DNA of 64,000 nucleotides from Methanobacteriota archaeon (GTDB taxonomy: Archaea; Thermoplasmatota; Thermoplasmata; SG8-5; JAGLSY01): NCBI GenBank assembly GCA_020696385.1, contig JAEHCQ010000003.1, forward strand, positions 33,889 through 97,888, written 5' to 3'. Below, piece by piece: positions 3,914-57,567 of this stretch. The position numbers were made by a program, and so were the translations under genes. Within the stretch, counting starts at the first letter, position 1; the number at the start of each line of letters is the position of its first letter. The notes under the pieces are model-generated. The model worked only from the letters and a program-made list of their open reading frames with translations, had not been told where the DNA came from and did no database searches.

Positions 3914-3979
3914 TTATGTCTGAGGAATAAAAATATACTGGACAGAGTATGCCTAATATTATACAAATAATTCTATATT

Positions 3980-14859: not shown

Positions 14860-17875
<3,016 letters not shown>

Positions 17876-20774: not shown

Positions 20775-20929
20775 GAACTCACCGGTATTATTATGTATTG
20801 GTTATACCAGACATTTGATAAATATTTTTCATAACAATTGTTTTGTTCGTATCTTATGATATATCTAATATATATTGAGAATAAATATATGATATGATGT
20901 CTTATCTATTATAATAAAAGGTGAGGGAT

Positions 20930-23900: not shown

Positions 23901-26900
23901 TAACCGTGGACAGCGGTACTTATGTTGAGAATGTGCTGGTCAATAAGGAATTGACCATTATTGGAAATGGCACTGCAAACACGATCGTCGATGGTGCAGG
24001 CAATAACAATGAGGATGTATTCTTTGTCACTGCAGATAATGTGATGATAACAAATATGAACATAACAAATGGCGGGACCATCGCGGGAGATGCTGGGGTC
24101 GAGGTCAGTGCATCCCATTGTATCATCCAGAATATCAGCTTTGACAATTTCCCATGGGGAGCTGTCAGGCCTCTTGGCGCTGACAATATCACCATAAGGA
24201 ACAATGTGATCACTGGAACAAGCTATTGTGTTTACATTCAATGGAGTGATTACTGTGAGGTCTATGATAATAACATATCGGGAAACAGCCAGGATGCAAT
24301 TTCATTTCAGAATTCCAATTGGAACACTGTGAGAGATAATGAGGTATGGCTGAACGCGGGTTCTGGATTATGGGTGCAGAGTTCTAAGAACAATACATTT
24401 GCCAACAATACACTGGCTCTGAATATTTATGGCATGGACTTCAGTTCAGATTCAGATAATTCAATGATAATTGATAATGATGTAATATCCAATACCTTCA
24501 GCGGGATAAATATATGGTCATCAGACTGGTGCCATATTCAGAACAATACGATATCTGGAAATGATTATGGAGTGAGTATTGGAAATTCCAATAATTGCAC
24601 TATCCTTGAAAATACCATATCTGGCGGCTCCTTTGCCATAAATCTGAACGGATGCTCTGAAACCGATGTCATGGAAAATAATGTAGCAGATTCAAACTAT
24701 GGTATTCAGGCAGATAATTCAAACACAATATTGATAGATGACAATGATATTTATATGACCATTACAAGGGCCATATATTTCTTATCTGGCTCGCATAATA
24801 GCACGGTCACAAACAATCGCATTGATGATTCTGCTGGCCACGGCATCTTCATGTCCGATTCGGCCTACATAACACTGACCAACAATACCATCAGGAACTG
24901 TACAAGCATGAATTGGGCTGGAATTGTGTACTGGAATACGATCTTCACCAATGTATCGAACAACAAGCTACACCACAATTATTGGGGTATCGTGGTCCAG
25001 GGCCAGTCAACTGATAATGATTTCTGGAACAATGAGATAAGGTGGAGTGATCAGCATGGGATCTGGTCAAAGGATGTCGGTGGAAGCCAGGAAAGGAACA
25101 GGTACATTGGAAACAATATCACAGAGAATGGTGTTGGGAACTTATGCGACGGTATCTATCTGGAAGGAATAGATGGTGATAACAATACTGTCGCAGGGAA
25201 CTGGGTCGCGAACAATGGCCGGAATGGTATTAAAATTCAAAACTCCGCAGGCCATCATATATCAGACAATACGATCCTTGACAATACCGGGAATGGTATC
25301 ATGCTAGAGGACTCAGAATGGAACACATTGAATGGCAACAATATATCCCATCACATGAACACAGACCCCAGGGGTATTCTCCTGGACAATAGCCAATGGA
25401 ACATGATAACTAACAACACACTATGGGACAATGGTGATGTGATATGCCTCTTCTGGACATCACAGAACAACACAGTAAAATTCAATGAGATACACGAGGC
25501 TCCTGGCCAGGGGATATATGTGGGAACTGGTTCCACTAACAATATCTTTGAACAGAACACGATCTCCAATATCAACAGTGCTGGAATATATATCCAGTCA
25601 GATGATAATGATATTATTGAAAATAGTTTCTCTTTGGGAACATCCTTTAATGTGTATCTGGACGATTGCAGCGGTGTAACTGTCAGTGGAAATGATATGA
25701 TCGATGGTAGCTTTGGAGTATATGCCACAGACGCACCAAATAACATTGTCGAAGGAAACAATATATCCAATTTAGGGAAAGCTATCTATGCTGAAAACTC
25801 AGATTACATGATGATCGACAATAATGATATGTTCAATAACAATATGGCGATCCATATCTTATCCAGCTCTTTCGATTGCACTGCAAAGAACAACCGAATT
25901 GATGGTTCAACTTCCTACAGCATTGGGATCGAAAACTCTGGCCGCATTGATCTGATGAACAATACCATCCAAAATGGTGTTGCAGGAACAAGCTGGGCGA
26001 TCTTCTTGTGGAACACCAACTGGATCAATATATCGGAAAATACAATGTTCAATAATGAAGGCGGAATAAGGATGCAGTCGAATTGTCACAATAACACAAT
26101 CTGGGACAATATCATATCCAGTAATGTAAATGGCATTTACCTGGAATTGACAAGAGACTGTAGTATCTACCACAATGACTTCATTGCCAATACCATCCAG
26201 GCCTATGATGATAGCTGGGGCAATAACTCCTGGGACAATGGCTACCCATCTGGCGGTAATTACTGGAGTGATTATGGAGGTGCAGATGTCATGTGTGGAC
26301 CATTGCAGGATACCTGGGGTAGTGACAGCCTGGGCGACACCCCATACACAAGTATCATCAGTGGAACAAATCAGGATAATTACCCGCTCTTGCACCCATC
26401 AAACTACATAGATGCTGTCGATCCAGTATCGCAGATCGACACAATATCACCCTATTGGTGGAATATCTCACCATTCGCAATAACCGCGAATGTCAGCGAC
26501 CCAGGAAGCGGAATTGACCACATCGAACTCTGGTACAGTTACGAGGGTGGCGCATGGACCTTCTTCGGCAACACGACCAGCTTTTCATGGACATGGGATT
26601 TCACATGGCCTGATGGAGAAGGGGATTATGATTTCTACTCCATTGCCATTGATAATTCTGCCAATGTCGAGAATGCTCCTGGTATCGCGGATGCAGGAGC
26701 TTATTATGATAGCACTGCTCCGATCATCAGTGCAGGGGATGATACAACTATCAACTCGGCCTATCAGCAGGATTCCTCCTACTTCGAGATAGGATCTGGC
26801 ATAGGCAATAATTCATGGACTGTTTTATCTGGCCCAGGCAATATCACTTTCACAAGCCAGTGGTCGGAAGATCCGTGGATCAGCGCGGACATGGATGGCC

Positions 26901-38048: not shown

Positions 38049-38831
38049 ATGGTTCAGAAGATCAGTGGCATTATTGCAGACCGCGCTTACTCCGAATATG
38101 AGAAAAAGCTTGTCAAAGAGGTTCAGGACGGCAAGACTCCCAATCATCTGGCTATCATCATGGATGGTAATCGACGCTTCGCAATGGAGCTGGGGCTTGG
38201 CAAGGCAGAGGGGCATGTCCAGGGCAAGAACAAGCTGGAGGAAGTTCTAGAATGGTGTTTGGAGGCCGATATTAAAATTCTAACTGTTTACGCATTCTCA
38301 ACCGAGAACATGACCCGCGATTCAGATGAACTGGCCACTCTGATGAAGCTGTTCGAAGAGAGCTTCAGAAAAGTGGCTGTGGACGAGCGTGTGATAAAGA
38401 ACAAGATCAAGGTTCGTGTACTCGGGGACACCCAGTTACTTCCAGATAATGTTCAGGAAGCCATTAAGTTTGCCGAAGAAAAGACCAAGGATCATAATAA
38501 TCATACTTTCAACCTGGCCATTGCTTATGGAGGTCGTCAAGAGATCATCATGGCCATCAAGAAGATCGCTGAAAGCGTGAAGAAAGGTGATCTGGAGCCA
38601 GCAGATATCAATGAAAAGATCTTTGCGGATTTTCTATACACTGCCGACCTTCCGGATCCTGACCTCGTCCTTAGAACATCGGGCGAGGAGCGTATATCCA
38701 ACTTCCTATTATGGCAACTGGCCTATTCAGAATTATACTTCACAGATGTGTACTGGCCAGGCTTTAGAAAGATCGATTTTTTAAGGGCTATAAGAGAGTA
38801 TCAGAAGAGAGCAAGAAGATACGGGAAATAG
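38049..38831 (+). CDS. uppS: cis-prenyltransferase, undecaprenyl-diphosphate synthase family
   Basis: HLAIIMDGNRRFA catalytic motif and a C-terminal ...LRTSGEERISNFLLWQLAYSELYF. Confidence 0.85.
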   Translation: MVQKISGIIADRAYSEYEKKLVKEVQDGKTPNHLAIIMDGNRRFAMELGLGKAEGHVQGKNKLEEVLEWCLEADIKILTVYAFSTENMTRDSDELATLMKLFEESFRKVAVDERVIKNKIKVRVLGDTQLLPDNVQEAIKFAEEKTKDHNNHTFNLAIAYGGRQEIIMAIKKIAESVKKGDLEPADINEKIFADFLYTADLPDPDLVLRTSGEERISNFLLWQLAYSELYFTDVYWPGFRKIDFLRAIREYQKRARRYGK

Positions 38832-41094: not shown

Positions 41095-42795
41095 TCAATT
41101 TTTCTGCTTTGCATTCTTTTTGTTCTGTATTTTAGCCCAAGAATCCCTGAGGCCAACAGTTCTGTTGAATATGATATTCTCATCGGATGAATCCGGATCA
41201 ACACAGAAGTATCCAGTCCTCTCGAACTGCACAGTATCCCCATGCTTGAGATCCTTTACGGCAGGCTCCACCTTGCAGCCTGCCAGTGTCTTGAGTGAGT
41301 CGGGATTGATGAACTCCTTGTAATCATGCTCTTTTTCACCAAGGGGATGTTCCACCGTGAAAAGCCTGTCGTATAGGCGTATCTCCGTGTCAATGGATTC
41401 GGTCGCTGATACCCAATGAATGGTGGCCTTGACCTTGCGGCCATCAGGAGCATTGCCGCCACGACTGTCCAGATCCACGGAGCAATGCAATTCAACAACC
41501 TCGCCAGCATCATTTTTCACGACATCATTGTATGTCAGCAAGTACGCATATCTTAGGCGAACTTCCCGACCAGGTGCGAGCCTGAAGAATTTCTTGACTG
41601 GCTCCTCCATGAAATCCGCGCGCTCGATGAATATTTCTCGAGTAAAAGGAACCTGGCGACTTCCCGCATCCGGATCCTCTGGATTGTTTATGGCATCCAG
41701 CATGTCGATCTCGCCCTCCGGGAAATTGTCGATAACTATCTTGAGCGGGTCAAGAACTCCCATGACTCGCGATGCTTTTTTATTCAGATCATCGCGAACG
41801 CAAGCCTCCAGTAATTCGAAGGCGATGACATTCGCCTTCTTCGCAATACCTGCTCGAGAGCAGAATTCCTTGACGGCCTCGGGGGTGTAGCCGCGCCTCC
41901 GCATGCCACATATTGTCGGCATGCGCGGATCATCCCAGCCATTGACAAGCTCCTTGGTCACAAGCTCCTTGAGGAAACGCTTGCTCATTATCGTGTAAGA
42001 AACATTCATCCTGGCAAACTCGATCTGCTGTGGATGATAGATACCCAGCTCATCCAGGAACCAGTCGTAAAGTGGTCGATGATTTTCGAATTCTATCGAG
42101 CAAAGCGAGTGAGTGATACCCTCAATGGAATCCTCCAGGCCATGTGCCCAATCATAAATTGGATAGATACACCATTCGTCACCAGTATGCGGGTGGGTGG
42201 CATGCAGGATCCTGTACATTGGCGGGTCGCGCATATTCATGTTCGGATGCGCCATATCGATCTTCGCCCTCAGCGTCTTGGAGCCATCCGGGAATTCACC
42301 CTTCTTCATCCTCTCGAAGAGATCCAGGCTTTCCTCAACTGATCTTTCACGGTTGGGGCTGTTCCTACCGAGGTTATTGTAATCACCTCGGTATTCCTTC
42401 ATTTCCTCCGCATTGAGGTCGCAAACATACGCCTTGCCTTTTTTGATAAGGTCAATAGCATAGTCATACATCTGCTGGAAATAATCAGATGAGAATAATA
42501 GGCGATCCTCGAAATCCGCACCCAGCCATTTCACATCTTCCACGATGGAATCAATGAATTCCTTTTCTTCCGCAATGGGATTCGTGTCATCGAATCTAAG
42601 ATTGAATTTACCGCCATATTCGTCCGCGATCCCGTAATTGACCCAGATGGCCTTCGCACTGCCCAAGTGCAGGTATCCATTTGGCTCTGGTGGAAATCGA
42701 GTATGCACTCGTCCATCGTATTTCTTGGTCTTGAGGTCCTCGTCTATGACCTGTCTTATAAAATCGCGTGATTGGCTTTCTTCCATTGGATTCAC
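41095..42795 (-). CDS. glnS: glutaminyl-tRNA synthetase, bacterial type
   Basis: 566 aa that aligns along its whole length with E. coli GlnRS as recalled. Matches include NFIRQIIDEDL / DFIRQVIDEDL, VHTRFPPEPNGYLHIGHAK / VHTRFPPEPNGYLHLGSAK (HIGH motif), NLRFDDTNP, CIYPMYDF / CIYPIYDW, VMSKR (KMSKS-type), GWDDPRMPTI, RKVKG.IHWVSA, and NRTVGLRD.WAK at the C-terminus. Confidence 0.85.
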   Translation of the reverse strand: MNPMEESQSRDFIRQVIDEDLKTKKYDGRVHTRFPPEPNGYLHLGSAKAIWVNYGIADEYGGKFNLRFDDTNPIAEEKEFIDSIVEDVKWLGADFEDRLLFSSDYFQQMYDYAIDLIKKGKAYVCDLNAEEMKEYRGDYNNLGRNSPNRERSVEESLDLFERMKKGEFPDGSKTLRAKIDMAHPNMNMRDPPMYRILHATHPHTGDEWCIYPIYDWAHGLEDSIEGITHSLCSIEFENHRPLYDWFLDELGIYHPQQIEFARMNVSYTIMSKRFLKELVTKELVNGWDDPRMPTICGMRRRGYTPEAVKEFCSRAGIAKKANVIAFELLEACVRDDLNKKASRVMGVLDPLKIVIDNFPEGEIDMLDAINNPEDPDAGSRQVPFTREIFIERADFMEEPVKKFFRLAPGREVRLRYAYLLTYNDVVKNDAGEVVELHCSVDLDSRGGNAPDGRKVKATIHWVSATESIDTEIRLYDRLFTVEHPLGEKEHDYKEFINPDSLKTLAGCKVEPAVKDLKHGDTVQFERTGYFCVDPDSSDENIIFNRTVGLRDSWAKIQNKKNAKQKN

Positions 42796-42928
42796 CTTTT
42801 ATGGCCTAGGCTAATTGGAATTACCTAATTAATGTTTCTTTGGCAAACCATTCAAAAAGTAGGGTATCCAAAAAACGGGGTGCCAGGCATTATAAAAAAT
42901 CATAGATTTTAACGGTAAAAAAAGAAAG

Positions 42929-43002
42929 AGCCATTGGAGAGATTTGAACTCCCGACCTGCTGATTACAAATCAGCCGCTCAACCGGGCTAAGCTACAATG
43001 GC
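42929..43002 (-). tRNA. tRNA-Thr (anticodon UGU), no encoded CCA
   Basis: The reverse complement folds as acceptor GCCATTG/CAATGGC, D-arm GCTT-AGCCCGGTT-GAGC, anticodon arm GCTGA-TTTGTAA-TCAGC, T-arm GGGAG-TTCAAAT-CTCTC, and discriminator U. Confidence 0.8.
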
Positions 43003-43246: not shown

Positions 43247-43318
43247 CAGCCTCGTAGTGTAGCGGTTATCATGGGAGACTCTGGATCTCTCGACTCCAGT
43301 TCAAATCTGGACGAGGCT
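43247..43318 (+). tRNA. tRNA-Gln (anticodon CUG), A1:U72 and discriminator A73, no encoded CCA
   Basis: Acceptor AGCCTCG/CGAGGCT, anticodon arm GGAGA-CTCTGGA-TCTCT (U33, anticodon CTG, G37), T-arm TCCAG-TTCAAAT-CTGGA. The D-arm TAGTGTAGCGGTTATCAT resembles archaeal tRNA-Gln. Confidence 0.7.
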
Positions 43319-43990
43319 ATATATTTTTATTAATGAGTCCAGATTTGAACTTAGCCCGAAAATGAATATCAACATTTTACAGCTTAATGCTAGGGCGTGA
43401 GCGTGGATTCGCAAGGCTAATCCACGTCATATTCAAAGAGGCTACCATATTTTATCACTTCATAAGTTTGATTTATCTTAACACAGTGAAGATCCATATA
43501 AAGAAAATGTAAACAATAATAACCGCCGAAATTCCTAAAAATAACAAAAAAAGTTGTGCGAAATAATCCTTTATATACTTTTCTATGGTCTATATTTAAA
43601 GGTTATTGCCAAAAAAATAATACCCACCAAAAGGTCTTTATATCTCCCTTCACAATAACCAAAATGGGATTGTGGCAAGGTGTTCGTTCCCTTGATATAG
43701 AATACCTTGCTTCGCCTCCTTATTTTTCAAATAATAGATCAATTATGAAATATAATTTTAAATTTTAATCCAGAAACATATGACATACTCTCAGGAAAAA
43801 AGGTGAAGCGAAAGGAAAAAGTAAACTTTATGGGGGAAGAGAGTCTAACAAAATGCCCCTCCGCTTCGTCACCAGCATATTGTAATTAGAATATAAGGTT
43901 TACGATTTGTATGACGGCATTCTACAGGCAGAGCAATATGATATTGTTATAGTGACTAGGTCATGTCTGCCATTATAATAGTCATGTCAA

Positions 43991-44818
43991 TTATTCCAAT
44001 TTTTTATGGATATAGGAATCTCCTTCTTCCCAATATCTCAACCCATCCACAAGCAGTCCATTCTCATCTCTCAGGAATATCACATCACCGTTATTATTCC
44101 ATATGGATGAGTCACTTCCCCAATATACCGTGATATTGGAATCCGTACCAGTTCCGCTTGCGAGAGATATTGAAGTGCCTGGCTCAAAAGTAATATCATC
44201 AAATCCATACATATGAGTTGCCTCATCCTTCACATTCCAATAGGTCATGTTGATCGGATCATCCCCATTGTTCGTAAATGTTATTGTCTCATAGTTCAGG
44301 CCAGCATCCCCCGAGAGCTGGATCGGCTGGAAATCGGATATCACCACATCATAAGGAGATGGTTCCCATAGGCCTCTCTTGGCCGCGATGGCCTCAGCCT
44401 CAGCCTCCTTTAGTTCGTCCCAGTATTTCGAATTGGGCTCGATGACATAGACATGGGCATAGCCCGACCTCACCATTTCCAGATTGACATGGACATCCCC
44501 CGCCCATACATAGCGCAGGAGTCGGCCGTAACCGTCCTTATCGGCCACATCGCCCTCCAGCCTTATCTCGCCTCCACCAAGGAGCTCTTCAAGCCTTTCT
44601 GTGGCCTTATCGGCGTATGGCACGCCCCTCTCGGGAGTGTTGATCCCCAGAAAACGTATCGAATCTCCATTCGTGGTCCTGATAGTATCTCCATCGACCA
44701 CGTAATCCACATGAGTGAATTCATCATTAGCACTTGGAAGTATATCCGAAGAAATAAGGATGCCAGCAGCTGCCAGGACCAGAATAATTACAGCTACCGC
44801 GATCTTGCCAGAGGACAT
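43991..44818 (-). CDS. secreted/membrane-anchored thermonuclease (SNase-like) with C-terminal lamin-tail domain (LTD)
   Basis: N-terminal signal anchor (IAVAVIILVLAAAGILI). SNase core (VVDGDTIRTTNGDSIRFLGINTPE...YGRLLRYVWAGDVHVNLEMVRSGYAHVY...AEAEAIAAKRGLW). A ~120-aa LTD follows (ISDFQPIQLSGDAGLNYETITFTNNGDDPINMTYWNVKD...IWNNNGDVIFLRDENGLLVD). Confidence 0.8.
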   Translation of the reverse strand: MSSGKIAVAVIILVLAAAGILISSDILPSANDEFTHVDYVVDGDTIRTTNGDSIRFLGINTPERGVPYADKATERLEELLGGGEIRLEGDVADKDGYGRLLRYVWAGDVHVNLEMVRSGYAHVYVIEPNSKYWDELKEAEAEAIAAKRGLWEPSPYDVVISDFQPIQLSGDAGLNYETITFTNNGDDPINMTYWNVKDEATHMYGFDDITFEPGTSISLASGTGTDSNITVYWGSDSSIWNNNGDVIFLRDENGLLVDGLRYWEEGDSYIHKKLE

Positions 44819-45009: not shown

Positions 45010-48000
45010 TCATTCTTCCTCGCTGGTCTTCATGCTATCAGCACAATCATTGCAGACGAAATCACCTTCTCCATCAGAGGATCCAGTCTTTCCAGACACT
45101 CCACAGTACGCACATTTGTCCTCTTTTGCTGGTTCAGGCTTCTCCTTATCGCTGCCACCCTTTCTCATGCTGATGACGGTGTTGACAAGAAGCAGGATTA
45201 TGACTATTATCAGAAGCAGCATGATGATGTTCTGATTTCCCTGCTGCTCACTTGACTCCGCACCCACCTTGTCCATCACGCTGGCCTCTGCCTCATCCAG
45301 ACTTTGTGCCAATGTGAAGAGATCGGCTCGGATCTCATCCAGTTTTGCAAGCTCTGCAAGAGTGTCATCGATATCTGCCAGGGTTGCATTGATATTATCC
45401 TGGAAGTCCATGATGTCCTGGTTCAGAGCCTGAAGATAAAGTAGAGCTCCAATGTCATGGGATGATAGATTGGCGGATATCCAATTCAGCCTCTGAGTTA
45501 ATTCGGCCAGTGTCAATGAATTGAGGTCACGGATAGTGTCATCGAGTAGAACCAGATCAGCAGTCATATTCTCATCATGAGATACCAGAAGCTCTCTCAG
45601 TCCGGCCAGTGAATTATTGAGGTCACTGTAGAAGCCATCCACCATGTTCTCAAGATCAACTATCCTGCTGTCCAGGTAGGCAGTGTCTGCATCCAGAGCG
45701 GCGATCATATCGATCAGCGCAGATGCAAGACCGTCCTGCATCGTGATGTTCAGACCATCCAGATCCATACTGAGACCATCCAATAGAAGGGTCAGGTCAG
45801 CTGTCTGATTCATTATCTGACTGTACAAAGCGAAGTCCACCCTGGCCAGTTCGTCCATGAAGGTCAGATTAAGGCCATCTATGAGACTGGTCAGGTTTCC
45901 CTCGACCTGCCATAGGTCCGAATACAGGCTGGCAACTGTCATGTTCAGGTAATCGATGTCCGCCTGAAGATCTGACACACTCATATTCAGCCAGGCAAGA
46001 TCTATCTGCACCTGAAGTAGAGTGGCATTGACATAATCAACATCGGCCTGCATAAGATCCAAAGTGGTATTGAAGTCTGCCCAGTAAGCAGATATCTGAC
46101 CATATGTCATCATATTCTCCATTGAGAGATTCGTCATACCGGAATCCATTGCGAATCTCATACTCGCTATGCTCGCATCCATCGCAGATATGTTAAGGTC
46201 CTGCGATGACAGCATTCCGCTTATGTATGATTCTGTGGCCGCCATGTCAGTCCAGGTTGTATTGAACCAGGCATTGGTTTGACTTGTCTGGGCCATAATG
46301 TCACCCCAGGTCATATTGAACCAATCATTGACCTGACTTGTCTGGGATGACGCATCAGCCCAGGTTGTGTTGAACCAATCATTGATCTGGGATGTCTGGG
46401 CTGCCATCGTGGTATTGTAATGTGCCCAGAACACTGTGAATTCCGCCCTCAGATCATTCAGGGATGACTGCATCGCCAGCTGTGTCATATTAGCAAAGTT
46501 CAGATCGTTCTGGATCTGTGTCATCGTGGTATTCCAGGATGTCCAGTATAGGCTCTGCAATGTATGTGTGTCATTATGCTGGCCCCACATTATCTGGAAA
46601 TAGTTCTGCATCGCGGCATCCATACTGGTCAGATTGGCATCCAGCTGTCCAAGATTTCCGGACAGATCGCTCAGAAGCAGGGTGATATTCGCCTCGAAGC
46701 CACTCATCTGGCTCCTGATGCTGGCGCCCTCGGCCTGGATGGTCAAGTTCAGACCATCCATCGTGGTGTTCAGATAGTTCTGATATGCCTGGAAATACAG
46801 ATGCCAGTTATCCCATGTTAGATTGAAATCATCCCTGTGTGCGAGCAATTGTGCCAGTATGATATTGGCCGTCGCATCCAAAGATGCAAGATCAAGCTGT
46901 ACTTGCAGAAGTGTGGCATTGAGGAAATCAATGTCCGCGCCCAGTGCGGCAGATGTCATATTCCAGTCTGCCCAGTAGAGGCCATGTAGTGCTTGTGTAT
47001 CATTGTGCTCGTCCCACATAGACTGGAAATAGGCCTGCATGACCGCATCCATGTTGGTCACATTAATATCCAACTGCCCAAGGTCAGCATCCAGATCATT
47101 CAAGAGAGCGGTCATATTGCCCTCGAAATCATTCATCTGGGTGTATACAATAGCTATCTGGTCCTGAAGTGTTATGTTCAATCCGTCAGTCGTTGTATTG
47201 AAATATGACCAGTATGAATCGAACTGCGCGTCCCATGTTGCCCAGGTTGCATTGAAATCAGTCCAATATGCCTGTATCAGCGCATTGTTCGCAGTCACTG
47301 TCGCATTGATATCAGTAATTGTCTGGATCCAGCCAACGACCTCGAAGCTGGTTATTCCAATGTAATTGAAGCCAGCTATCTGGGCGTTCACTGCAACGAA
47401 GTAGGTTCCTGCCGCGGGTATGCTGTCACTGTATGTGTAGAGCCCGAATGATGCATCCAGTATGTTCATGGATGCATTGTCCACGATCTTTGTCATGGTG
47501 TCGTCAAATATGGTCACGCTCACATTGGTGAAAGCGTCTGGCACCAATGCCTGACCGTTCTGGGTTACGGATGCCATGATATCATATTCAACACCATTGG
47601 CATCGTACTGAAGACCAGTTGTGACATCCACATTTGTTGGTGGTGTTGTGGAAGATAGGGTCACGGTGACTTCCTTTGACATATCGATTGAAGCAACAGT
47701 GGAGCCCATCAAAAGACCATTATTGGCAATAGCCAAATGCGGTGTATTAGCTGTCTGGCTAGCCTGATCCTCGACATACTCTGTCACAATATTCCATCTG
47801 GCATATCCATTAGCATCGGCATTCACATTGTAAAGCGGTGTATTGAAGATATCAGCGATCTCCACCTGTGCTCCTGGTACTGGCTGCATCATGTCATCAC
47901 GCACGTACACATCCATGAACCACTGTATCTCAAGTGTGGAGAGCGCATCCATATAATTTATGGATGCCTTGTTAAAGGTCGAGTTCAGTGTCGTGATGTG

Positions 48001-51000
48001 GCTGTCCTGGTCCAATGCCAACTCAAAGCCATTGCCAGAGAACGTGAAGTTCTCAATGGTGAAGGTACTGTCAACACCAAAAACACCGGTCGGAGAGTTG
48101 GTTATGGTATTCAGAGACATTGGAGTGGTATAATCAGAACCCCTTACACCCAGTCCAAAAGCCGTAAGTGCGTTCATTGTGTTGCCAGTTATGAGATTGT
48201 CACCAGAGTCCCAAGAATAGATACCTATGGGGCTGCTGGTTATAATGTTCGATATTACAGTGTTGCCGAATGTCCCATCAGACAATCTGATACCTTCAGA
48301 GATCGCGCCGGTAATAGTATTGCCAGATACAAGATTTCCAGTGGATGTAAGAGTGACTAAGACCCCTATCATTGAAGAGCTCATCAAATTGTTTGTAACA
48401 TAGTTCGAATCTGAATCACTTAAACTGATATCATTCTGGGCATTGCTATTGAATGTTGAACCGTTGATCACATTGTAATTTGACGATTGTAATCTTATGC
48501 CTCGCCATAGGCTTGAGGTGATCGTGGAGCCCTCGATGGTATTGTAATCACAATTAAAGGCAAACACCCCCCCACTGTCACTGTTCGTGATCACAGTATT
48601 GATAATGGTGTTGTAATCGGCATCACGCAGGTACAATCCATATCCCTCATCGCTATTGGATATCGTCGAGTTGATTATGTAGTTGTTATCTGACCTAAGG
48701 TACAATCCATGAGCATTGCCAGTGAATGTCGCATTGTAGAGAAATACGCCGTTTGCGTATACTTCCACACCTTCATTTGACCAATCCCAGCCGGCATCCC
48801 TAATGGTACTGTTCTCCACCCTGAAGCCAGCACCACTCATCACATTGATAAGATATCCAAAGGTCGTGTTGGACATCACAGTGCTTCCTTCGATTAGATT
48901 GAAGGTACCTGTGGAGTTCACCTGGATAAGATACTGGCCATGGAAGGCATTGTTCATTCTCAGCTCGGTCTCGTCAAGTATCAAAGAACCACCGCTCTCG
49001 ACCCAAATATCACCAGTCTGGTTCCAGAAGGATGGATCCACAGTTAGTGTTCCGCCATTCCTTATGACCAGCTGGCCAGTGAGATTGAATGATGAGTCCC
49101 TTATCAGGACATCGACACCATCGACGGTGACATCCTCGAAGTACGTCATGTCATCAAGATGTAATTCATCGCCATCACTTGCATTGGCGATGGCTCCCTG
49201 TAGTGTATCATACCACAATCCCTGGTCCCAATTGAGAACATGCTGGTCAGGATGTAACATATTCCATCCGAATGGGTTGGTATGGGGGAAATAATCAGTT
49301 GAGTCACCGTCGATCACGTATGGAACATCGACAAAGCCATCCCAGTTTATGTCCGGAGATGTCCAGGTGTCGAAATAATTACCACCCTGGGCATACCCTA
49401 GATTGTAGGTGTTGGCTGCGAAAGAATCCAATATATGCACAGTGTTATTGATGAAATTATTGTGGAATATGTAATTCCCATTGAAGCTGCCAGGTGATGT
49501 CACATAAATACCATTGGTTCCATCCCTGAAGGTATTATTGCTGATCTCATTGCCATTGGCAGTATTTGCTGAGCCACCATTCCATATCCCATTACCATTG
49601 CCAGATACCATGTTCCATCTTATCAGATTGTTATCTGAGTAATCCCAGATCCTGAATCCAATGCCTGAATTCAAAATGGTATTGTTGTTTATATCACAAA
49701 GATCCGTATTGACTATATTTATTCCATTGGCCGCATTGTCATAAAAGTCATTATATCGGACAATAACGCCATCGGCACCATTGAGCATCAATCCGTCCAA
49801 ACCATTCCCGTATATCATGTTCTGGAAGACCGTGGCTCCATCGGAGAACAGGTAAAGGCCAGTTCCGGTATTGTTGTAGATCGTGTTATTGGCTATATAA
49901 TGCGGTGATGTGGAATCCATCTGGATACCCTGACCACCATTGAATCCAACGGTATTACTCTCGATGATAGCATCATCAGGATAAGATCCCTCAAAGTAAA
50001 TTCCTGCGCCAGTGTTGTTGTGGACGTAATTATCGATCACCTCTGCCCAATCAGCATACCAGTAGAAGTTGATACCCTCTTCAGAATTGTAAGATATCTC
50101 ATTTCTATATATCTTATTGGAGTCGCCGTGGTAAACGTAGATACCGATCCTATTGTATTGAATAGTATTGTCAAGTATCTTGTTATTATCACAGTCATCA
50201 TCTTCCAGTGCTATGCCATCTACAGTGCTGTTCGTCACGGTGTTATTGTGTATCGTGTTTAATGTAGAGGTTCCGTACATTGATAATCCATTGGCCGCAC
50301 TGTTATTGATAGTGTTCCAGGCAATTATATTGGATGATCCTCTGAAGCGCATTCCATAGCTGTTCGAATCCAATATATCATTATCTCTGAAGATATTCGA
50401 GTTACCTGTGGAGATGATACCATATAGATTGGTATTGATGATCGTGTTATTATGAACCTTTGTTGAGTCACTGGCACTGTACATATCGATACCATAGGAG
50501 TTCGTATCGCTGATCGTATTATGGGAAATGATATTGTTGGACGCTCCGGTGAAGTATATTCCAGTTGCCCCGCCTGTTATGGTATTGTTGTCGACAATAC
50601 AATTTGTTGGACCATCGATCTGTAATATGTTCTGAGCAGTCGAGGAGGCCGAGAGGTCATTCCAGGTCACATTGTTCCACTGGCTAACACTGGTTATCCT
50701 GAGCTGACCAATATTGTCAATGATATCGTTTTGTGTAATGGTGTTAGAATCAGAACCATCAGCAACATAAATTCCCAGGTTGCCATTGTCATATACCATA
50801 TTGTTCTCGATCAGGTTGAAATTTGAATTCCAGACAACTCTGATTCCAGTCAATATATTTGAGCCCATTGAACTATTGGCTACATAACTGTAGTTTGAAT
50901 TATAGTATCCAAGGCCAAAGTAATTCCCGGTAACATTGACACTTTCCACTTTGACGTGTTCCGCATACCATATGGCAAGACCAGCATCATTGCCAGAACT

Positions 51001-54000
51001 ACCACTGTTGGTGATCTTAAACCCAGAGATATTGGCCCAGTCCGATGTGATCTGAGCAGAAGTTCCGGTTCCCAGAGCATCGATGGTGGTATTATCCATG
51101 CTGGCTCCGATCAATGTCAGAGCTTTGCTGACCACGACATTCTCATAATACTCACCCTCGCCCACAGTTATCGTGTGGCCGTCAAGGGTATCTGCATCGT
51201 CTATGGCCATCTGGATGGTCAAGAACTGTTCGCCAGAATCTGTATTGATGACCGAGCCTATGGCATTGGCAAGTGGGAAAGCATCCATATTCAGGCCAAT
51301 GACATATGGTACATCCACTATGCCATTGAGATCCGCATCTGGTGTCTGCCAGTCATTCCAATAATTACCCTGAGAGAGTATGCTGGATCCCCATGCATTC
51401 TCATCCAGCTCATAGACCTGGACACCATTGTCAATGAAATTGTTATGATAAAGGATATTGTCATTTCCTTCTTCAATATAAATCCCATATCCGAGATTAT
51501 CTTGGATCGTGTTATTTGTAAACATGTTGGTACGGTTCACTTGTAATGTAGCAGCTATCTCAGGTATGGCTCTAAGGAAAGGATAGGATGTGCCTTCATT
51601 GATATCCCAAACAGTAGTGAAGTCCCAGCCTGTGAATGTTGCTTCTTGCTGCATCTCGACTGTTGTCTTTCCAGTTCCGTCTGCACTAACCAGGTTCCCT
51701 GATGCATCTGTATCCCAGAAGCAATTGGTGACCGTGCCTATGATATCATATCCGACAAAGCCTCCCACAAAGGAGGTGCCTGTAGCATTGCCCGTGCTGT
51801 AGGAGTTCATGACCAAGCCTTCATTTCTTCCAACGAAGCCGCCAACTGAGCCACCGACCCCACTGGCACTGCCTGTGCTGTAGCAATTCGTTATTGAATC
51901 ATCACTCCATCCGACAAAGCCTCCAATATAATCCTCTCCATTGGCACTACCTGTACTGAAGCTGTTCATGATCGAACCCCAGTTCTCTCCAGCAAAGCCA
52001 CCGATGGAATCTCCTGTTCCGGTGGCATCGCCTGTACTGGAGCAGTTCTCGATAGTACCGGCATCGTTCACTCCAATGAAACCGCCAATTGAGAGGTCTC
52101 CAAGGACGATAGTAGTGCTGGAGCATTCTGTTATCAAACCAGCATCATTCCATCCTACAAAGCCACCTACTCCCTGAGAACCGCTCGCATTACCTGCGCT
52201 GAAGCAATTTGTTATCGTACCACCTGTATTTCTTCCAATGAAGCCGCCAACTCTGTGTGTAGTTCCTGTAATATCCCCAGTTGAATTGGAGTTCGTTATT
52301 GTTCCTTGGCCTAGACCCACAAGGGCTCCAACAAACTGATCACCAGTTATGTTGCAGTTGTCCAATATCAGATTGGTAACGGATGAAGGGATACCCAGAT
52401 AACCGAAAAGTCCAACATAATCTGTTGCTGGCCTATTGATGAATAGTCCATCGATCTCATATCCTTGGCCATCAAGTGAGCCTGAGAATTGGGTTGCAAG
52501 AGTTCCAATTGGTTCAAAGCCAGCTCCTGCATTCCATGTTGATGTGGCACTTGCATCGATATCATTCATCAAGTAGTAATCCACAGTCAGATCCAAACTC
52601 ATATTTTGGAGTTCAAAGACATTGAATATCATATTGGATGGTGCATTTGTTATTTGGAATGGATAACCGCTTCCATCCATTACTGCCCATACAGTAGTGA
52701 AATCCCAGCCAGTGTATGTCGATTGCTGTTGCATCTCGGCCGTGGTCTTTCCGTAAAGATCGACAATTCCTGTGTTGGATCCAAAGCCAGTCATCGATCC
52801 AGATGTATCCGTGTCCCAGAAACATGGGTCGATCGTGCCTTCATTCTCACCTGCGAATGCTCCAATATCTGAATTGCCGGTTGGAATACCCGTGCAATAG
52901 CTATTGATGATAGTTCCGAATATAGAGCCAACAGTGTTGATGCCAACAAAGCCACCGACCTTATTGTATCCGTTCACATCACTAAGACTGTATGAATTAT
53001 TGATGTAGTATTTGTTGGTTCCAGCAAAGCCGCCGTAACCATTGCCGGTGGTAGTATTGCCAACAGTGCCTGTGCTGAAACTTTGGACTATCGGGCCTTC
53101 ATTGAATCCAACGAAGCCGCCGACATCTAAAGCACCGTCAACATCCCCAGTGGCCGAGCAATCCTTGATCTCCATGATACCGAAAGATTTGGAGTGAATT
53201 CCCACAAAACCACCTATGGATGAGGAGAATGTAGAGCTAACGACCTTTGTGCTACTTGAGCTTCCGGTTATCTCGCCATAATTCTCTCCAACAAAGCCAC
53301 CGATCTGACTATTTCCATATAATAAGCCACCAGCACTGCAATCTGTGATAGTTCCAGTGTTAAGTGCCGTTAAGCCTCCTGCCATACCTCCAGAGGTTTG
53401 ATTTAAGAAACCAAATGTAGAGCTATCAGATATTGTCGAGCTCCAGGCCTGGCCAACTAAACCACCGAGGTATGATTTTCCTTCGATGTAGATATTGGTC
53501 ATGTGAACATTTTGGATCGTCGCGCCCCAAGTGTATCCAAACAATCCAAGATCACTCTCACCTGGACGAACCATTATCAAGCCGTTAATAGTGTATCCTT
53601 GACCATCCAGAGTACCCTGGAATGGACCACTTGAAGATCCAACAGTGACGAAACCCAGACCACCATTCCATGTTGATGTAGCACTTGCATCGATATTATT
53701 CATTATCTTATAGCTGGCTGTCAGATCATCATTCATTTCCTGAAGCTCATTGACATTGGTTATCTGATATGGATCACCAGGAGTTCCCGTGCCAGTACCT
53801 GTGAAGAAAGGTGCAGGAGTTGGAATTGGCTGTGAAGCAGTTCCTACATTTGTCTGACCTATCGTGCTAAATGGCGCATTGTAAGTTCCATTTATGAATA
53901 TTCCATCACCAGTATTTCCGACGATCGTGTTCCTGCTGATATCATTCACAACACCACTGTGGGTTGCGAGATCGTAAAGGTAGAGACCATCGCCATTGTT

Positions 54001-57000
54001 ATTCAATATCATGTTGTTTGTAATATCAATGTTAACGGAATAGTTGACAGCTATCCCATCATATCCGCTGTTACCGACAGTGTTGTTCCTCACTGGCGTG
54101 TCTTGAGCTTCCAATAGCCAGATACCGAAGTGACTGCTATTCCAGACCTCATTGTTCTCCACGGTATTGTTGTGGTGTGGGTTGTCATAAGTTCCGCCAT
54201 AATCATTCAGAATAGCAATGCCAGTCCAATTGCTGTTCGTGACATTATTTCCAATGATTTTTGTATTGTCTACCTCATATACTCCCCATAACAAACCAAT
54301 TCCATAGTTCCTGCTATCCGAGATAGTATTGTAAAGTATCTGATGATCGCTACCCTGGCCGAAATAAATACCGTGGCTGTTATTCGTGATATTATTGTAT
54401 CTAACTATATGCCCCCAGGTATTTCCACCGCCGATTCCGATCCCACCATTATCATAAACATCATTGTACTGATAAATACCATTGTTAGCATAACTCATAT
54501 AAGCACCATATATGTCATTGTTATGAATGGAATTGTTCTCTATGGTATTATAGTTACAACCATAATCATTTCCGATGCCGAAATAATAGTTATCAAATAC
54601 GTCATTATCCGCTATAACATTGTAATCTGAATATCTTTCAATATGGATACCACCATCAAAACTGCCCATACCCAGTCCATTGTTGTAGACTGTGTTTTCC
54701 CTTACAATATTGTAATCTGTTATACCAGTGAAAGAATACAGGTTTATGCCGTCCTCGTCATTATCGAAGACGGTGTTATTTGAAACTGTGTTATATCCTG
54801 CCTGATAGAGTAATATTCCGTTCTCCCTTTGCGAGTCAGAGACAGTGTTATTATCAATGATGTTCCATGATCCAGTAGATACCTGAATTCCATTGTATTC
54901 ACAGAAAGATATCGTATTGTTCAATATCATATTGGAGCTCGTGGACTGAACTCGGATTCCATCATAATCGCTGGCTGTTATTATATTACCCTCAATGGTA
55001 TTTGAGCTTCCAGCAGATATCCTGATACCATGCTGAGATCCGTACATGATATTGTCATACACATGAACATTGGTCACAGTGTCCAGGTTAACACCAGCAT
55101 CTGCACTTAAGCTGGTTCCGCCATTGGTGACATTGAATCCAGTTATGTTCACCCAGTTGGACTGGATATCCATAACTTTACCGACTCCACTGCCGTCAAT
55201 TGTTGTATTGTCCCTGCCAGCTCCCTGTATTGTCAGGGTCTTGTTGACTATGACATTCTCTGTGTATGTGCCTTCTGCAACAATGATCGTGTGCCCATCC
55301 ACTGTGTTTGAATCATCAATAGCTTCCTGGATATCTGAGAATGTATCACCAGTATCGATGTTTTCAACGGGGTCTGCTAAAAATGGCCAGCCACTTGGAG
55401 ATACCCAGGGGAAGTCGTCCTGGCCATTGGTGGAAAAGATGGTGTTCCAGGAACCTGCAGATGTCCATTCAATACCCATGTAAGGCGTGTCGCCTATGCC
55501 ATCGCCGTTACCATCAGCACCTGCATAGTCATCCCAGTAGTTACCACCAGATGGAAGTCCATTATCCCAGAATGGATTGCCGCTGTCAAAGGCATGGAAT
55601 CCAAGGTTGTTAATGAAATTATTATTGAAAATGACGGCTCCGATGTTCGGGCCATCCACAGTAATACCATTACCAGCGTTGCCGGAAATGGTATTGTTCT
55701 CTATGAAAGCATTATCCATATTAGCTCCGATATGAATACCATGTTGCAATGTACCAGTTACATTAAATCCAGATATCTCGACATTTGGTGCACCGATATA
55801 GAAACCAATATTGTTGACACCCTCGCCATCAAGAATGGTATTGTCCTTGTTCTCTCCGGTTATGATCAGTTCCTTGTCGATATTGACAGATTCATTGTAT
55901 GTTCCGGATTCGACAAATATCTCGTGGCCATCCAATGTCTCAGAAGCATCAATGGCTTCCTGAATGGTCCTGTATGTGAAACCAGTGTCCAAATTACTCA
56001 CTGGAGTCACCCAATAATTTGCCACCATCCAAGGATAAGCATCCGACCCAGTGCCTGGAATCGCTCGTGCTGTGTCTCCAATGCCATCTGAATTCGCATC
56101 TACGCCAATATAATCATCCCAATAATTACCACCAGTTGGGAGAGATTGAGACCATATTTGGGTGCCAGAGCCTTCGGAGTAAGCATGCATGGCATTACCA
56201 ATGAAATTATTGTTGTATATCTGGGTCTGAGGACCTTGTGAATTTGAAATAAAGTATAAATGGATACCGTATTGGCTGGCGCCAGAGATTGTGTTTCCAA
56301 TTATCCGATTATTGTGGGTGGCACTGAGATAAATGCCTAATGTGCCGCCAGTGATCGTGTTCGATTCGATGATGTTTCCAATACTTGGAAATCTTTGAAT
56401 GTACATACCATATGTATTGGATGTGAATGTGTTATCCTTAATTGAGGTGTAGGATGATTCCCAATCCCATATGCCTCTTGCATTGCTAGTCATTGTATTA
56501 TTGTTTATGTCATTGTGATCGGCTCCCACATATAAGGCAACAGCAGATGAATAACTAGATGTGAATGTATTTCCTGTGATCACATTGTAGGTGGCTCCTT
56601 GCAGCAATATACCCTGGCCATTGTCATGAATGATATTGTTCTCTATCAAGCAGTGATCGAAATTGTTAATGTAAATTCCACCATTGAGATTATATTGGTA
56701 TGAATTCTGTATTTTGAGATCCTTCACGGTCACATAGTCTGCCTGTATGTTCACAGTGTGCGTGACTAGGCCACCATCTATGATAGTGGTCAACGGATCC
56801 TCTCCCTGAAGTGTGATGGCTTTATCGATCACCACATTCTCAAAGTATGTTCCCGCACTGACCAGGATCGTATGCCCGTCTAGTGTCTCAGAGGCATCAA
56901 TAGCCTCCTGGATCGTGTTATAGCCAAAACCTGTGTCAATATTCTCCACAAGATATAGGGCATTGTCTTCATCTCCAAGATTCATCCCTATAACACTCAC

Positions 57001-57057: not shown

Positions 57058-57310
57058 ATTTGTCCTCTCCGATTCATTGTGCACGCAAATCGCGTACCTT
57101 AACTCTGTTACAACACGGGATTAACAGATTATTAATATAGTTATGCACTAATAAAAATAAATATGAATATATGTATATAATGCACCATATAATAATTAAC
57201 GATGGTTAATGAAACTATTGTAATAATAAAATGTTAATTATTATATGCAAAACGCACCATTATTACACCCAATGATGCGGAAAGATAACTAAAAAATAAG
57301 ATATAAAGCA

Positions 57311-57447: not shown

Positions 57448-57567
57448 CGCCGAGGGGGAGATTCGAACTCCCGAGGTGAAACACCACCGGCTTTCTGACC
57501 CAGAAATGAAATGAAATGACATTTCTGAATTCGAGGCCGGCGCCCTACCGGACTAGACTACCTCGGC
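57448..57567 (-). tRNA. tRNA-Ser (anticodon CGA) with 37-nt intron at position 37/38, long variable arm, discriminator G73, no encoded CCA
   Basis: The reverse complement reads GCCGAGG-TA-GTCT-AGTCCGGTA-GGGC-G-CCGGC-CTCGAA[TTCAGAAATGTCATTTCATTTCATTTCTGGGTCAGAA]A-GCCGG-TGGTGTTTCACCTC-GGGAG-TTCGAAT-CTCCC-CCTCGGC-G. The intron contains an 8-bp internal helix (CAGAAATG/CATTTCTG) and an (ATTTC)x3 repeat. Confidence 0.8.

Follow-up and report, generated by a model that had tools for sequence, protein, structure and literature searches.

The 64,000-nt window analyzed here carries a gene for a giant surface protein of 4015 amino acids (45010-57057, minus strand, on which all features of this gene lie), counted from an ATG start codon. 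The full open reading frame covers 45010-57084, with an in-frame GTG at 57084 giving 4024 amino acids and the ATG at 57057 giving 4015; residue numbers used below count from the GTG, such that residue n starts at 57084-3(n-1). A public protein, P0002 (4015 aa), is identical in sequence to the window protein. The head contains about 16 matches to the Pfam NosD/Beta_helix models and 9 Glug matches, and the translation opens with a hydrophobic, signal-like segment (MRSVQQILGIVLAVMMIMPVSVIG, 56986-57057) that we infer to be a Sec signal. The last beta-helix is followed by apparently beta-rich domains (residues 3041-3255, 47320-47964), which are 40% identical to P0001 and for which a Pfam search listed a weak bMG3 match. 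This region closes with a junction motif, FEVVGWI, whose general form FEVVxWI is present in 10 of 84 relatives.

At the other end of the protein, a hydropathy scan identified a single C-terminal transmembrane (TM) helix (NIIMLLLIIVIILLLVNTVIS, 45169-45231), aligned in all family members and followed by MRK and a 52-residue cytoplasmic tail (45013-45168) that is kept in the orthologue. This tail is basic and then acidic, and contains a zinc-ribbon-like C-x2-C ... C-x2-C motif (45037-45117) found in just 3 of 81 family tails. The combination of an extracellular head, a single C-terminal TM helix and a basic/acidic tail corresponds to a type I topology, so the N-x-S/T sequons of the intervening stalk face outward. 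An earlier note on this DNA, made from the sequence alone, had placed the region directly before a C-terminal TM anchor, and the stalk does lie between the extracellular head and the single TM helix.

The stalk comprises residues ~3256-3940 (45265-47319), about 685 residues without a single proline. The earlier note had described 45235-47650 as helical throughout; the predicted helices begin at residue ~3256 (47319), and some 110 residues upstream of them (3145-3255) look beta-rich. Dot-plots and unit alignments divide the stalk into unit A, which is rich in Trp and dense in sequons (143 aa, residues 3262-3404, 46873-47301), its duplicate A' (residues 3405-3547, 143 aa, 46444-46872), a divergent unit B of ~160 aa (residues 3548-3707, 45964-46443) and a Trp-poor, Leu/Asp-rich distal stalk (residues 3708-3940, 45265-45963), the last of which is common to the wider family by alignment. 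The distal stalk ends in a conserved membrane-proximal motif, F-x7-L-x2-I-(N/D)-x-T-L-x2-L-x-K-L-D-x-I-x2-D-L-x2-L (about 45265-45417). Repeats of ~140-150 aa, as initially proposed for the whole region, are thus found in residues 3262-3707 (143, 143 and ~160 aa), and residues 3708-3940 form a different kind of stalk. The proposed richness in Trp has the same limits, with 4.7% Trp in residues 3262-3707 versus 1.8% in the head and few Trp in the distal part.

The periodicity is evident in both protein and DNA. When residues 3241-3950 are compared with themselves in a BLOSUM62 dot-plot, the strongest diagonals lie at offsets of 143 aa (score 100, with 110 windows of at least 45), 18 aa (score 110) and 297 aa (score 85), all above what 20 shuffles produced (mean maximum 37, highest 44). 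A direct DNA repeat with a spacing of 429 nt (46530-46711 versus 46959-47140, 73% identity) matches the ~430-bp periodicity that had been noticed. The copies are nevertheless far from near-identical, as they had first been called: A and A' share 48-51% amino acid identity and 58.5% nucleotide identity (47.5% at third codon positions), and from this divergence the two 143-aa units are read as old duplicates. In the alignment, A' forms an insertion of 143 aa that P0001, P0003 and P0005 lack, while unit B is only about 27-31% identical to A and A' yet 61% identical to unit B of P0003.

Within unit B lies a shorter array, comprising three tandem repeats of 18 aa (54 nt) with the consensus (A/S)QTSQxN(D/A)WFN(T/M)TWxDxx (46240-46401). 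Tandem Repeats Finder (TRF) reports this array with a period of 54 nt, 2.9 copies and 78% matches at 46244-46400, and the 54-nt repeats are 72-78% identical to one another. The orthologous locus of a close relative (L011), which was reached through the neighboring glutaminyl-tRNA synthetase (GlnRS) homologue P0094, has one copy of the 18-aa motif versus three in the window, visible as a 36-aa indel in the alignment; GlnRS is 95% identical between the two genomes. We take this difference in copy number as evolutionary variation; it does not demonstrate switching. The suggestion that the large repeats might constitute a contingency locus is unsupported for the 143-aa units, because these are too diverged (58.5% nucleotide identity) and are present in the same number in this close relative.

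The stalk is predicted to be alpha-helical with heptad/hendecad periodicity. Its hydrophobic autocorrelation peaks at lags of 7, 11, 14, 18, 25 and 36, and the 7-, 11- and 18-residue periodicity is compatible with a coiled coil. A monomer AlphaFold2 (AF2) model of residues 3241-3720, built from a five-sequence alignment, is about 95% helix by DSSP (pLDDT 55, pTM 0.31), and a second monomer model is helical from its first residue (3661) through the TM segment to about residue 3975 (pLDDT 70, pTM 0.40), with pLDDT reaching 85-91 in part of the distal stalk. Together with the lack of proline and autocorrelation lags of 7, 11, 14 and 18, these models agree with the alpha-helical, heptad-like character originally ascribed to the region, at low to moderate model confidence. 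A peak at 2.25 in the hydrophobicity spectrum was considered as a possible sign of beta-strand and rejected, given the absence of proline, the composition and the AF2 helices; in our interpretation it combines the 8th harmonic of the 18-residue repeat with an alias of the second harmonic of 3.6.

Comparison with described families recovered no model, from Pfam or NCBIfam, that reaches threshold on the stalk or its relatives, in agreement with the initial impression that the repeat belongs to no described family. Apolipoprotein (PF01442) and Spectrin both lack a match at E<=1 on the 784-aa C-terminus of the window protein, and the 143-160 aa units are considerably longer than the ~106-aa three-helix-bundle repeat of spectrin. 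Among relatives, the apolipoprotein model scores 27.2 bits on P0014 and 28.8 bits on P0023 against a gathering cut-off of 90 bits, and such sub-threshold matches concern only the Trp-poor distal stalk, with none in the Trp-rich units of the window protein. Baculo_PEP_C (PF04513) gives 21.8 and 20.3 bits in the window protein and about 29 in relatives, with a cut-off of 38. Across 20 family stalks, sub-threshold matches to Apolipoprotein (E<=0.01) and Baculo_PEP_C occur in 13 and 18 respectively, and a family profile matches ApoA-IV in the PDB with E=7e-12. Exchangeable apolipoproteins (ApoA-I, ApoA-IV, ApoE) and Baculo_PEP_C share an 11/22-residue amphipathic helical periodicity with the family stalks, and we read these matches as a reflection of the shared 11-residue periodicity and not as membership. 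Apolipoprotein repeats are Pro-punctuated 22-mers, which are absent from the stalk, and the context here is a membrane-anchored archaeal ectodomain rich in sequons. The NCBIfam equivalog model for SlaB (NF040788) yields 15.4 bits (E=0.0067) against a cut-off of 700 bits, the family profile weakly matches NadA (E=0.004), and fold searches returned generic helical bundles only.

The most distinctive property of the stalk is its density of sequons. Over 681 aa there are 35 N-x-S/T motifs (30 of them N-x-T), compared to 9.45±2.66 expected from 2000 shuffles, while outside the stalk the protein has 63 where 68 are expected, so the enrichment is confined to the stalk. The density originally noticed is therefore real, although the spacing has a median of 18 residues and not 10-15. 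The signal is directional, with N-x-[ST] occurring 35 times versus 6 for [ST]-x-N, 9 for N-[ST] and 8 for N-x-x-[ST], and it is specific to Asn: 60% of stalk Asn fall within sequons, whereas 9% of Asp are followed by x-[ST]. The corresponding counts in the family stalks are 711 versus 169. Sequons are also conserved, being retained at 32 of 33 positions in the close orthologue and at 21 of 24, 18 of 26 and 24 of 29 positions in homologues of 54%, 38% and 47% identity respectively, and in the unit alignment the columns without any variation are the N and T of sequons together with F and W. These patterns support the view that the stalk sequons are under selection. Enrichment of extracellular sequons beyond composition is a mark of archaeal N-glycoproteins that the stalk displays, and its sequons are most likely N-glycosylated by an archaeal oligosaccharyltransferase. 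No aglB gene lies within the 64-kb window; a gene for a cis-prenyltransferase of the dolichol-precursor type, a housekeeping gene, is located at 38049-38831.

The sequons are also phased with the helical repeat. Over 711 sequons in 73 family stalks, hydrophobicity peaks at -8, -4, -1, +3, +7 and +10 relative to the Asn, an 11-residue pattern in which the sequon sits between two core positions; the window protein itself, with peaks at -8, -4/-5, -1, +3, +6 and +10, is closer to heptad spacing. Successive sequons differ by a mean angle of 69-85 degrees, a range set by the choice of helical period, and those spaced by 20 residues fall in some cases on different faces of the helix, so glycans would not form a single stripe.

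An exhaustive phmmer search defines a stalk-and-anchor family of at least 84 protein clusters (84 representatives, E<=1e-3) with the distal stalk and TM helix, most of which match only query positions ~430-750. The shared parts are the distal stalk, the membrane-proximal motif and the single TM helix, while the heads vary among NosD/beta-helix, FG-GAP, Laminin_G_3 (LamG) and Big_7 domains. All named members are "hypothetical" proteins from Thermoplasmata or Euryarchaeota metagenome-assembled genomes, and we found no description of this family in the literature. At the orthologous locus, the stalk is 84-91% identical to that of the window protein versus 64% for the aligned region of the beta-helix head, which contains large indels; a conserved stalk and a variable head fit a structural pillar carrying a changeable head. 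An HMM search of all ORFs in the window revealed no second protein with this stalk. The second giant protein of the window (20921-28741) has an Asp/Pro-rich linker in its place.

Taken together, we consider it probable, though well short of certain, that this region represents the stalk-and-anchor module of a type I-anchored giant Thermoplasmata surface protein, with the stalk acting as an N-glycosylated coiled-coil or helical-bundle spacer. Following export, the single C-terminal TM helix would keep the giant protein in the membrane, and the ~685 Pro-free residues would form long alpha-helices of mixed 7- and 11-residue hydrophobic periodicity that most likely join as a coiled-coil or helical-bundle rod. 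Such a rod could reach up to ~100 nm if fully extended, or about one third of this if folded back, and would hold the ~3000-residue beta-helix/GLUG head off the cell. Sequons recurring at intervals of roughly 18 residues, each directly after a core position in a fixed register, would most likely bear N-glycans, and the resulting sheath may solubilize and stiffen the rod and shield it against proteases. In the membrane-distal two thirds, the Trp/Phe/Tyr-rich units A, A' and B would place aromatics at core positions beside the sequons (W-x2-F-N-x-T-W).

A possible though unlikely alternative is that the stalk consists of intramolecular antiparallel bundles joined in a chain, similar to spectrin or exchangeable apolipoproteins, in which each ~143-aa unit folds back on itself to produce a flexible, monomeric rod of ~30 nm. 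Against this, AF2 predicts unbroken helices of 114 and 142 residues that cross the unit boundaries of the Trp-rich region, proline is absent and glycine sparse at these boundaries, and neither a match to spectrin nor any Pfam threshold was obtained. The tendency of monomer predictions to fold long helices back also counts against this alternative.

The sequons could instead be structural, providing polar layers or helix-capping contacts in a bundle that is sparsely glycosylated or not glycosylated at all, which we regard as improbable. The Asn does adjoin a core position in fixed register, the +1 residue is often hydrophobic, and Asn layers occur in the coiled coils of bacterial adhesins. The N@d layers known from trimeric autotransporters, however, have the motif N-T and not N-x-T. 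In addition, Ser and Thr exchange freely at position +2 (323 S and 388 T in the family), the motif occurs strictly in one direction and is specific to Asn with no substitution by Asp or Gln, and the enrichment is found only in the stalk of an archaeal protein. Very improbable is a membrane-active role in cell-cell contact or fusion, analogous to the HR1/HR2 and Trp-rich membrane-proximal regions of class I viral fusion proteins: W-F-N-T-T-W does resemble WNWFNITNW of the gp41 MPER, the Trp-rich units of one relative (L004) extend to ~25 residues before the TM helix, and weak matches of the family profile in the PDB include coronavirus S2 HR1, HA2 and gp41-mimic chains (E 2e-4 to 0.08), but these matches go no further than generic coiled coils, neither a fusion peptide nor a cleavage site was identified, Trp residues occupy core positions in the helical repeat, and the Trp-rich units of the window protein are membrane-distal, more than 230 residues from the TM helix.

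A bolder form of the glycosylated spacer reading, which we put forward tentatively and think rather unlikely as a whole, is that the module is a generic envelope pillar of uncultured Thermoplasmata. Here the stalk would be a homo-oligomeric, mixed 7/11 coiled coil with a phased glycan sheath, and aromatic residues on either side of each sequon (W at one core position, F/Y at the following one) would form a core that drives a bundle of at least 4 helices or glycan-aromatic stacking, making it a previously undescribed glycoprotein rod. If so, these giant beta-helix proteins could take the place of an S-layer canopy in this lineage, or act as adhesive fibrils of ~100 nm.

The principle of a coiled-coil stalk with a C-terminal anchor is not new. 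In tetrabrachion, 11-residue repeats make up a right-handed coiled-coil stalk, and the pattern here is hendecad-like at the family level while the window protein itself mixes lags of 7, 11, 14 and 18. Precedents for membrane-anchored coiled-coil stalks on archaeal surface proteins are tetrabrachion and SlaB (PMC6911244; bioRxiv 10.64898/2026.08.21.746120), and the window protein shares their type of layout: a signal sequence, extracellular beta-rich domains, a long predicted alpha-helical stalk and a single C-terminal TM helix. Tetrabrachion, an S-layer glycoprotein of Staphylothermus marinus, has a tetrameric coiled-coil stalk of ~70 nm that is anchored in the membrane (bioRxiv 10.64898/2026.08.21.746120); like the window protein, it is a large archaeal surface protein with a beta-rich outer part, a very long alpha-helical stalk and a C-terminal membrane anchor. 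We detected no sequence relationship between the two, and tetrabrachion belongs to Thermoproteota and not Thermoplasmata. The phased sequons and Trp-rich units seen here, along with mixed 7- and 11-residue spacings, distinguish this stalk, the first two being features not described for tetrabrachion. SlaB, the heavily glycosylated S-layer anchor of Sulfolobales, is a stalk that holds the outer structure off the membrane (PMC6911244), and its parts occur in the same order (signal sequence, beta-sandwich domains, alpha-helical coiled-coil domain, one C-terminal TM helix). Its coiled coil is about 100 residues long, in contrast to the ~685-residue stalk here, and it carries a separate lattice protein, SlaA, whereas the window stalk bears its own giant beta-helix/GLUG head.

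Beyond archaea, the coronavirus spike stalk (HR2 region) is an N-glycosylated trimeric coiled coil with hinges that give the head orientational freedom (bioRxiv 10.1101/2020.06.26.173476). It resembles the window protein, by analogy only, in its type I topology, large head on a stalk and Phi-N-x-S-Phi motifs within a hydrophobic repeat, but it is a much shorter, viral structure that belongs to a fusion machine. In trimeric autotransporter adhesins (YadA, NadA), a long coiled-coil stalk likewise holds an adhesive, beta-rich head out from the cell; these proteins are bacterial, use an outer-membrane beta-barrel anchor, are not known to be N-glycosylated at phased sequons and show no detected homology.

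The value of the finding lies in an undescribed family of unusual regularity, in a lineage whose cell envelopes have hardly been described. Because many different adhesin-like or enzyme-like heads bear the module in this lineage, it is probably the standard mount for large proteins on the membrane. The phasing of sequons with the helical repeat offers a sequence-defined, testable model for long, protease-resistant archaeal glycoprotein rods, and the stalk profile could help to detect surface proteins in metagenomic data. As for the host, the window contains an archaeal LSU rRNA, and the closest named relative of its GlnRS belongs to a Thermoplasmata archaeon (81%). An affinity to halophiles (Nanohaloarchaeota, Haloquadratum), considered on the basis of a very acidic, Lys/Arg-poor protein, was rejected given this GlnRS, the glycine-cleavage and GS genes of the window and the composition of its cytoplasmic proteins, which have pI values of 4.7-6.2 and normal K+R; extreme acidity is limited to secreted proteins.

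The giant gene occupies 45010-57084 on the minus strand and encodes 4024 aa from a GTG start, or 4015 aa from an ATG at 57057. The top match of an exhaustive search was a 4015-aa protein identical to that of the window (P0002), encoded on a 261,582-bp NCBI contig. In the head (residues 1-3040), Pfam recognizes NosD/right-handed beta-helix sequence in ~16 stretches, along with 9 GLUG motifs, and gives no significant match after residue 3040. Counting from the GTG, residue n begins at 57084-3(n-1), so that the interval originally flagged as a helical stalk, 45235-47650, corresponds to residues ~3145-3950. This description holds for most of the interval but not for residues 3145-3255, which contain no helical repeat, align with homologues, terminate at a junction, FEVVxWI, and look like a beta-rich domain. 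The stalk itself comprises Trp-rich units A (residues 3262-3404) and A' (3405-3547), a divergent unit B (3548-3707) that includes three 18-aa repeats, (A/S)QTSQxN(D/A)WFN(T/M)TWxDxx, and a Trp-poor, Leu/Asp-rich distal part (3708-3940), followed by a single TM helix (3952-3972) and a cytoplasmic tail of 52 aa. Its ~685 residues contain no proline, and 21 of its 23 tryptophans lie within units A-A'-B, where they make up 4.7% of residues.

The repeat structure noticed in this interval is real and well above chance. A self dot-plot of residues 3241-3950 using BLOSUM62 window scores gave diagonals at offsets of 143 aa (score 100, with 110 windows scoring at least 45), 18 aa (score 110) and 297 aa (score 85), while the maximum score in 20 shuffled stalks averaged 37 and reached 44 at most. 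The DNA contains a direct repeat with a spacing of exactly 429 nt (46530-46711 versus 46959-47140, 73% identity) and, at 46244-46400, 2.9 tandem copies of a 54-nt unit. The 143-aa offset and the 429-nt repeat bear out the ~430-bp periodicity claimed in the earlier note. Its description of the copies as near-identical is wrong, since A and A' share only 48-51% protein identity and 58.5% DNA identity (47.5% at third codon positions).

By autocorrelation, hydrophobic residues of the Trp-rich part recur at lags of 7, 14, 18, 21, 25, 29 and 36 and those of the distal part at 7, 11, 18 and 36, indicating ~3.5-3.67 residues per turn. A strong peak at period 2.25 in the Fourier hydrophobicity spectrum of the stalk was considered as a sign of beta strands and rejected; we read it as stemming from the 18-residue repeat (8th harmonic) or from aliasing of the 3.6 period (second harmonic). 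AlphaFold2 models residues 3241-3720 (five-sequence alignment) as ~95% helix by DSSP, with single helices of 114 and 142 residues, though at low confidence (pLDDT 55, pTM 0.31). Residues 3661-4024 (20 sequences) are modeled as helical throughout (pLDDT 70 overall, 85-91 at model residues ~140-250), with one 98-residue helix spanning the membrane-proximal motif and the TM segment. The fold-back in this distal model, together with the modularity of the units, favors the main rival explanation for the stalk, a chain of intramolecular bundles, but the very long helices predicted to run over unit boundaries speak against it. Overall, the stalk is most likely a glycan-sheathed helical rod. Anchored by the TM helix and short tail, a continuous rod of this kind would keep the beta-helix/GLUG head up to ~100 nm off the membrane (685 residues x 0.15 nm), and one with folded-back units about a third as far. 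The initial interpretation of the region as a glycosylated coiled-coil spacer is reasonable, though demonstrated only in part.

The glycan component of this reading derives from the sequons. The stalk has 35 (30 NxT, 5 NxS) versus 9.45±2.66 in shuffles, and the head has 63 versus 68 expected. Their median spacing is 18 residues, wider than the 10-15 first reported. The window stalk contains 35 N-x-[ST] motifs compared to 6 [ST]-x-N, 9 N-[ST] and 8 N-x-x-[ST] controls, and 60% of its Asn lie inside sequons, while x-[ST] follows only 9% of its Asp. The same holds across 73 family stalks, with counts of 711 versus 169 and 47% of Asn in sequons, compared to x-[ST] following 12% of Asp and 14% of Gln. 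At +2, the family uses Ser and Thr interchangeably (S 323, T 388). Sequon positions are kept far over background (21 of 24 at 54% identity, 24 of 29 at 47% and 18 of 26 at 38%), and the columns that never vary in the unit alignment hold the N and T of sequons, F and W. Directionality, Asn specificity and Ser/Thr equivalence together point to selection on the glycosylation signal itself, in a part of an archaeal membrane protein that lies outside the cell, and we infer that the sequons are occupied by glycans. There is little support for the alternative that the N-x-S/T motifs serve a purely structural role. Hydrophobic peaks around the 711 family sequons fall at -8, -4, -1, +3, +7 and +10, an 11-residue pattern in which N-x-S/T fills the three-residue gap separating one core position from the next. 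In the Trp-rich part of the window stalk the context is W(-4) x x F(-1) N x T W(+3). Aromatic residues adjoining sequons affect glycosylation efficiency and stack on the glycan (the "enhanced aromatic sequon"), and the same may apply in helices. On this subject, the references of PMC10830103 include Huang et al. 2017.

The sequence family to which the stalk belongs is undescribed, and its architecture is of a known kind. In line with the earlier note, which did not recognize a described repeat family here, all Pfam and NCBIfam models score below their cut-offs, and apolipoprotein-like matches are sub-threshold only. Baculo_PEP_C scores 20-22 bits for the window and ~29 bits for relatives (cut-off 38), Apolipoprotein 27-29 bits for relatives with no match for the window (cut-off 90), and the SlaB equivalog 15 bits (cut-off 700). 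Against PDB, the family profile matches ApoA-IV (E=7e-12) and, weakly, coronavirus S2 HR1, HA2, NadA, sigma-1 and keratins; as all of these are periodic helical proteins, we take the matches to reflect common periodicity. There is little support for the Trp-rich heptad segments being membrane-active or fusogenic. Nearest by architecture are the membrane-anchored coiled-coil stalks of two archaeal surface proteins: tetrabrachion, whose tetrameric stalk separates lattice and membrane by ~70 nm (bioRxiv 10.64898/2026.08.21.746120), and the heavily glycosylated SlaB, in which beta-sandwich domains are joined to a ~100-residue coiled coil and a TM helix (PMC6911244). In function, the stalk is analogous to that of the coronavirus spike, a glycosylated coiled coil with hinges (bioRxiv 10.1101/2020.06.26.173476).

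An exhaustive phmmer search of 1.84 billion representatives with the 784-aa C-terminus returned 84 proteins at E<=1e-3, the majority aligning only at query positions ~430-750, the distal stalk and TM. In 81 of the 84, a C-terminal TM segment follows a proline-poor, sequon-rich stretch (typically 2-5 sequons per 100 residues), and the family alignment keeps a pre-TM motif, F-x7-L-x2-I-(N/D)-x-T-L-x2-L-x-K-L-D-x-I-x2-D-L-x2-L. Heads vary among NosD/beta-helix, FG-GAP, Laminin_G_3 and Big_7 types (Pfam), with TSP3-like DxDxDG linkers also present, and named members, from MAGs of Thermoplasmata, Euryarchaeota and Methanobacteriota, are all "hypothetical protein" or "parallel beta-helix repeat protein". 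Far fewer proteins have the Trp-rich units than have the distal stalk; these units occur in P0001, P0003, P0005, P0006 and P0045, in the GTDB genomes Ca. Proteinoplasmatales archaeon SG8-5 and Methanobacteriota archaeon S2_100, and on 4 metagenome contigs. Types A and B (~30% identity) alternate, in copy numbers of 1 (P0006), 2 (P0001, P0003), 3 (window), 4 (locus L004) and ~4.5 (locus L005, in S2_100). When P0001, P0003 and P0005 are aligned with the window protein, the latter shows two insertions: a clean one of 143 aa, which is unit A', and one of 36 aa, which adds two 18-aa repeats. The L005 protein has three extra Trp-rich repeats of ~33 aa between two A-B pairs (residues ~2268-2340), roughly (F/H)W(S/D/A)D(F/V)N(I/T)TWD(D/N)W(Y/Q)(S/L)Y(Y/F)(Q/K)xYQ(A/T)Y(I/L)N, indicating that sub-unit pieces of A can amplify independently. 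The cytoplasmic tail carries a zinc-ribbon-like C-x2-C ... C-x2-C motif, KCAYCG...VCNDC (45037-45117, minus strand), which suggests a cytoplasmic binding partner for some members. Among 81 family tails just 3 have this motif, and it is kept in the orthologue.

That orthologue, 4143 aa and 128 aa longer overall, lies in a syntenic locus (L011, GCA_020697715.1) located through a GlnRS 95% identical to the window's. The two stalks share 84-91% identity and 32 of 33 aligned sequons. The sole stalk indel is a 36-aa segment (three 18-aa repeats versus one); over this evolutionary distance the 54-nt repeat varies in number and the 143-aa units are constant. On the other hand, the beta-helix heads are 64% identical where aligned, and ~690 aa of the window head (residues ~1838-2540, ~49500-51600) are missing from the matching part of the orthologue. 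By this comparison, the pillar is conserved and the head plastic, acquiring or dropping whole repeat blocks. The gene directly downstream of the giant one (43991-44818, minus strand) encodes 275 aa that begin with a hydrophobic segment and include staphylococcal-nuclease and lamin-tail domains, probably a surface or secreted nuclease; tblastn found no homologue in the 21.7-kb L011 stretch, so this gene differs between the two genomes.

An HMM search found the stalk module only in the 4015-aa protein of the window. A second giant surface protein (2606 aa; 20921-28741, plus strand) shows by eye a lectin-like region, GLUG-like and beta-helix repeats and Ig-like repeats, then an Asp/Pro-rich linker, TM helix and acidic tail, with no helical stalk; beside it lies an 878-aa GLUG/He_PIG/TSP3 protein (18138-20774, minus strand). 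The window DNA is archaeal, with a complete, solitary archaeal 23S rRNA gene (14874-17861, minus strand) and no 16S or 5S rRNA gene in the whole window (Rfam). Thermoplasmata typically have unlinked rRNA genes. Nearby housekeeping genes encode glycine-cleavage P subunits, glutamine synthetase, cis-prenyltransferase and GlnRS, the closest named relatives of the last coming from Thermoplasmata archaeon MAGs (81% identity). A salt-in halophile host was rejected, since extreme acidity is confined to secreted proteins (pI ~4, K+R 2-3%) and the charge of cytoplasmic proteins is ordinary (pI 4.7-6.2).

At locus L006 of another public assembly (GCA_020714265.1, JAEHCP010000024.1), which encodes an identical GcvP protein, the contig ends within a few bases of the giant gene start (window ~57089). 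Short-read assemblies are probably interrupted by the repeats of this giant gene, and such proteins are therefore likely under-represented or truncated in databases. Just upstream of the gene start (57448-57567, minus strand), Rfam detects a tRNA (71 model positions over 120 nt, 44.7 bits) that ARAGORN does not call and that is probably an intron-containing archaeal tRNA. The class I synthetase adjoining the giant gene (41095-42795, minus strand) is a glutaminyl-tRNA synthetase whose named matches are "glutamine--tRNA ligase/YqeY domain fusion protein", from Thermoplasmata MAGs and, at 67-68% identity, bacteria. As GlnRS is, to our knowledge, absent from most archaea, it looks like a bacterial-type acquisition. 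It is adjoined by tRNA-Gln(CTG) (43248-43319, plus strand), and tRNA-Thr(TGT) lies at 42928-43002 (minus strand).
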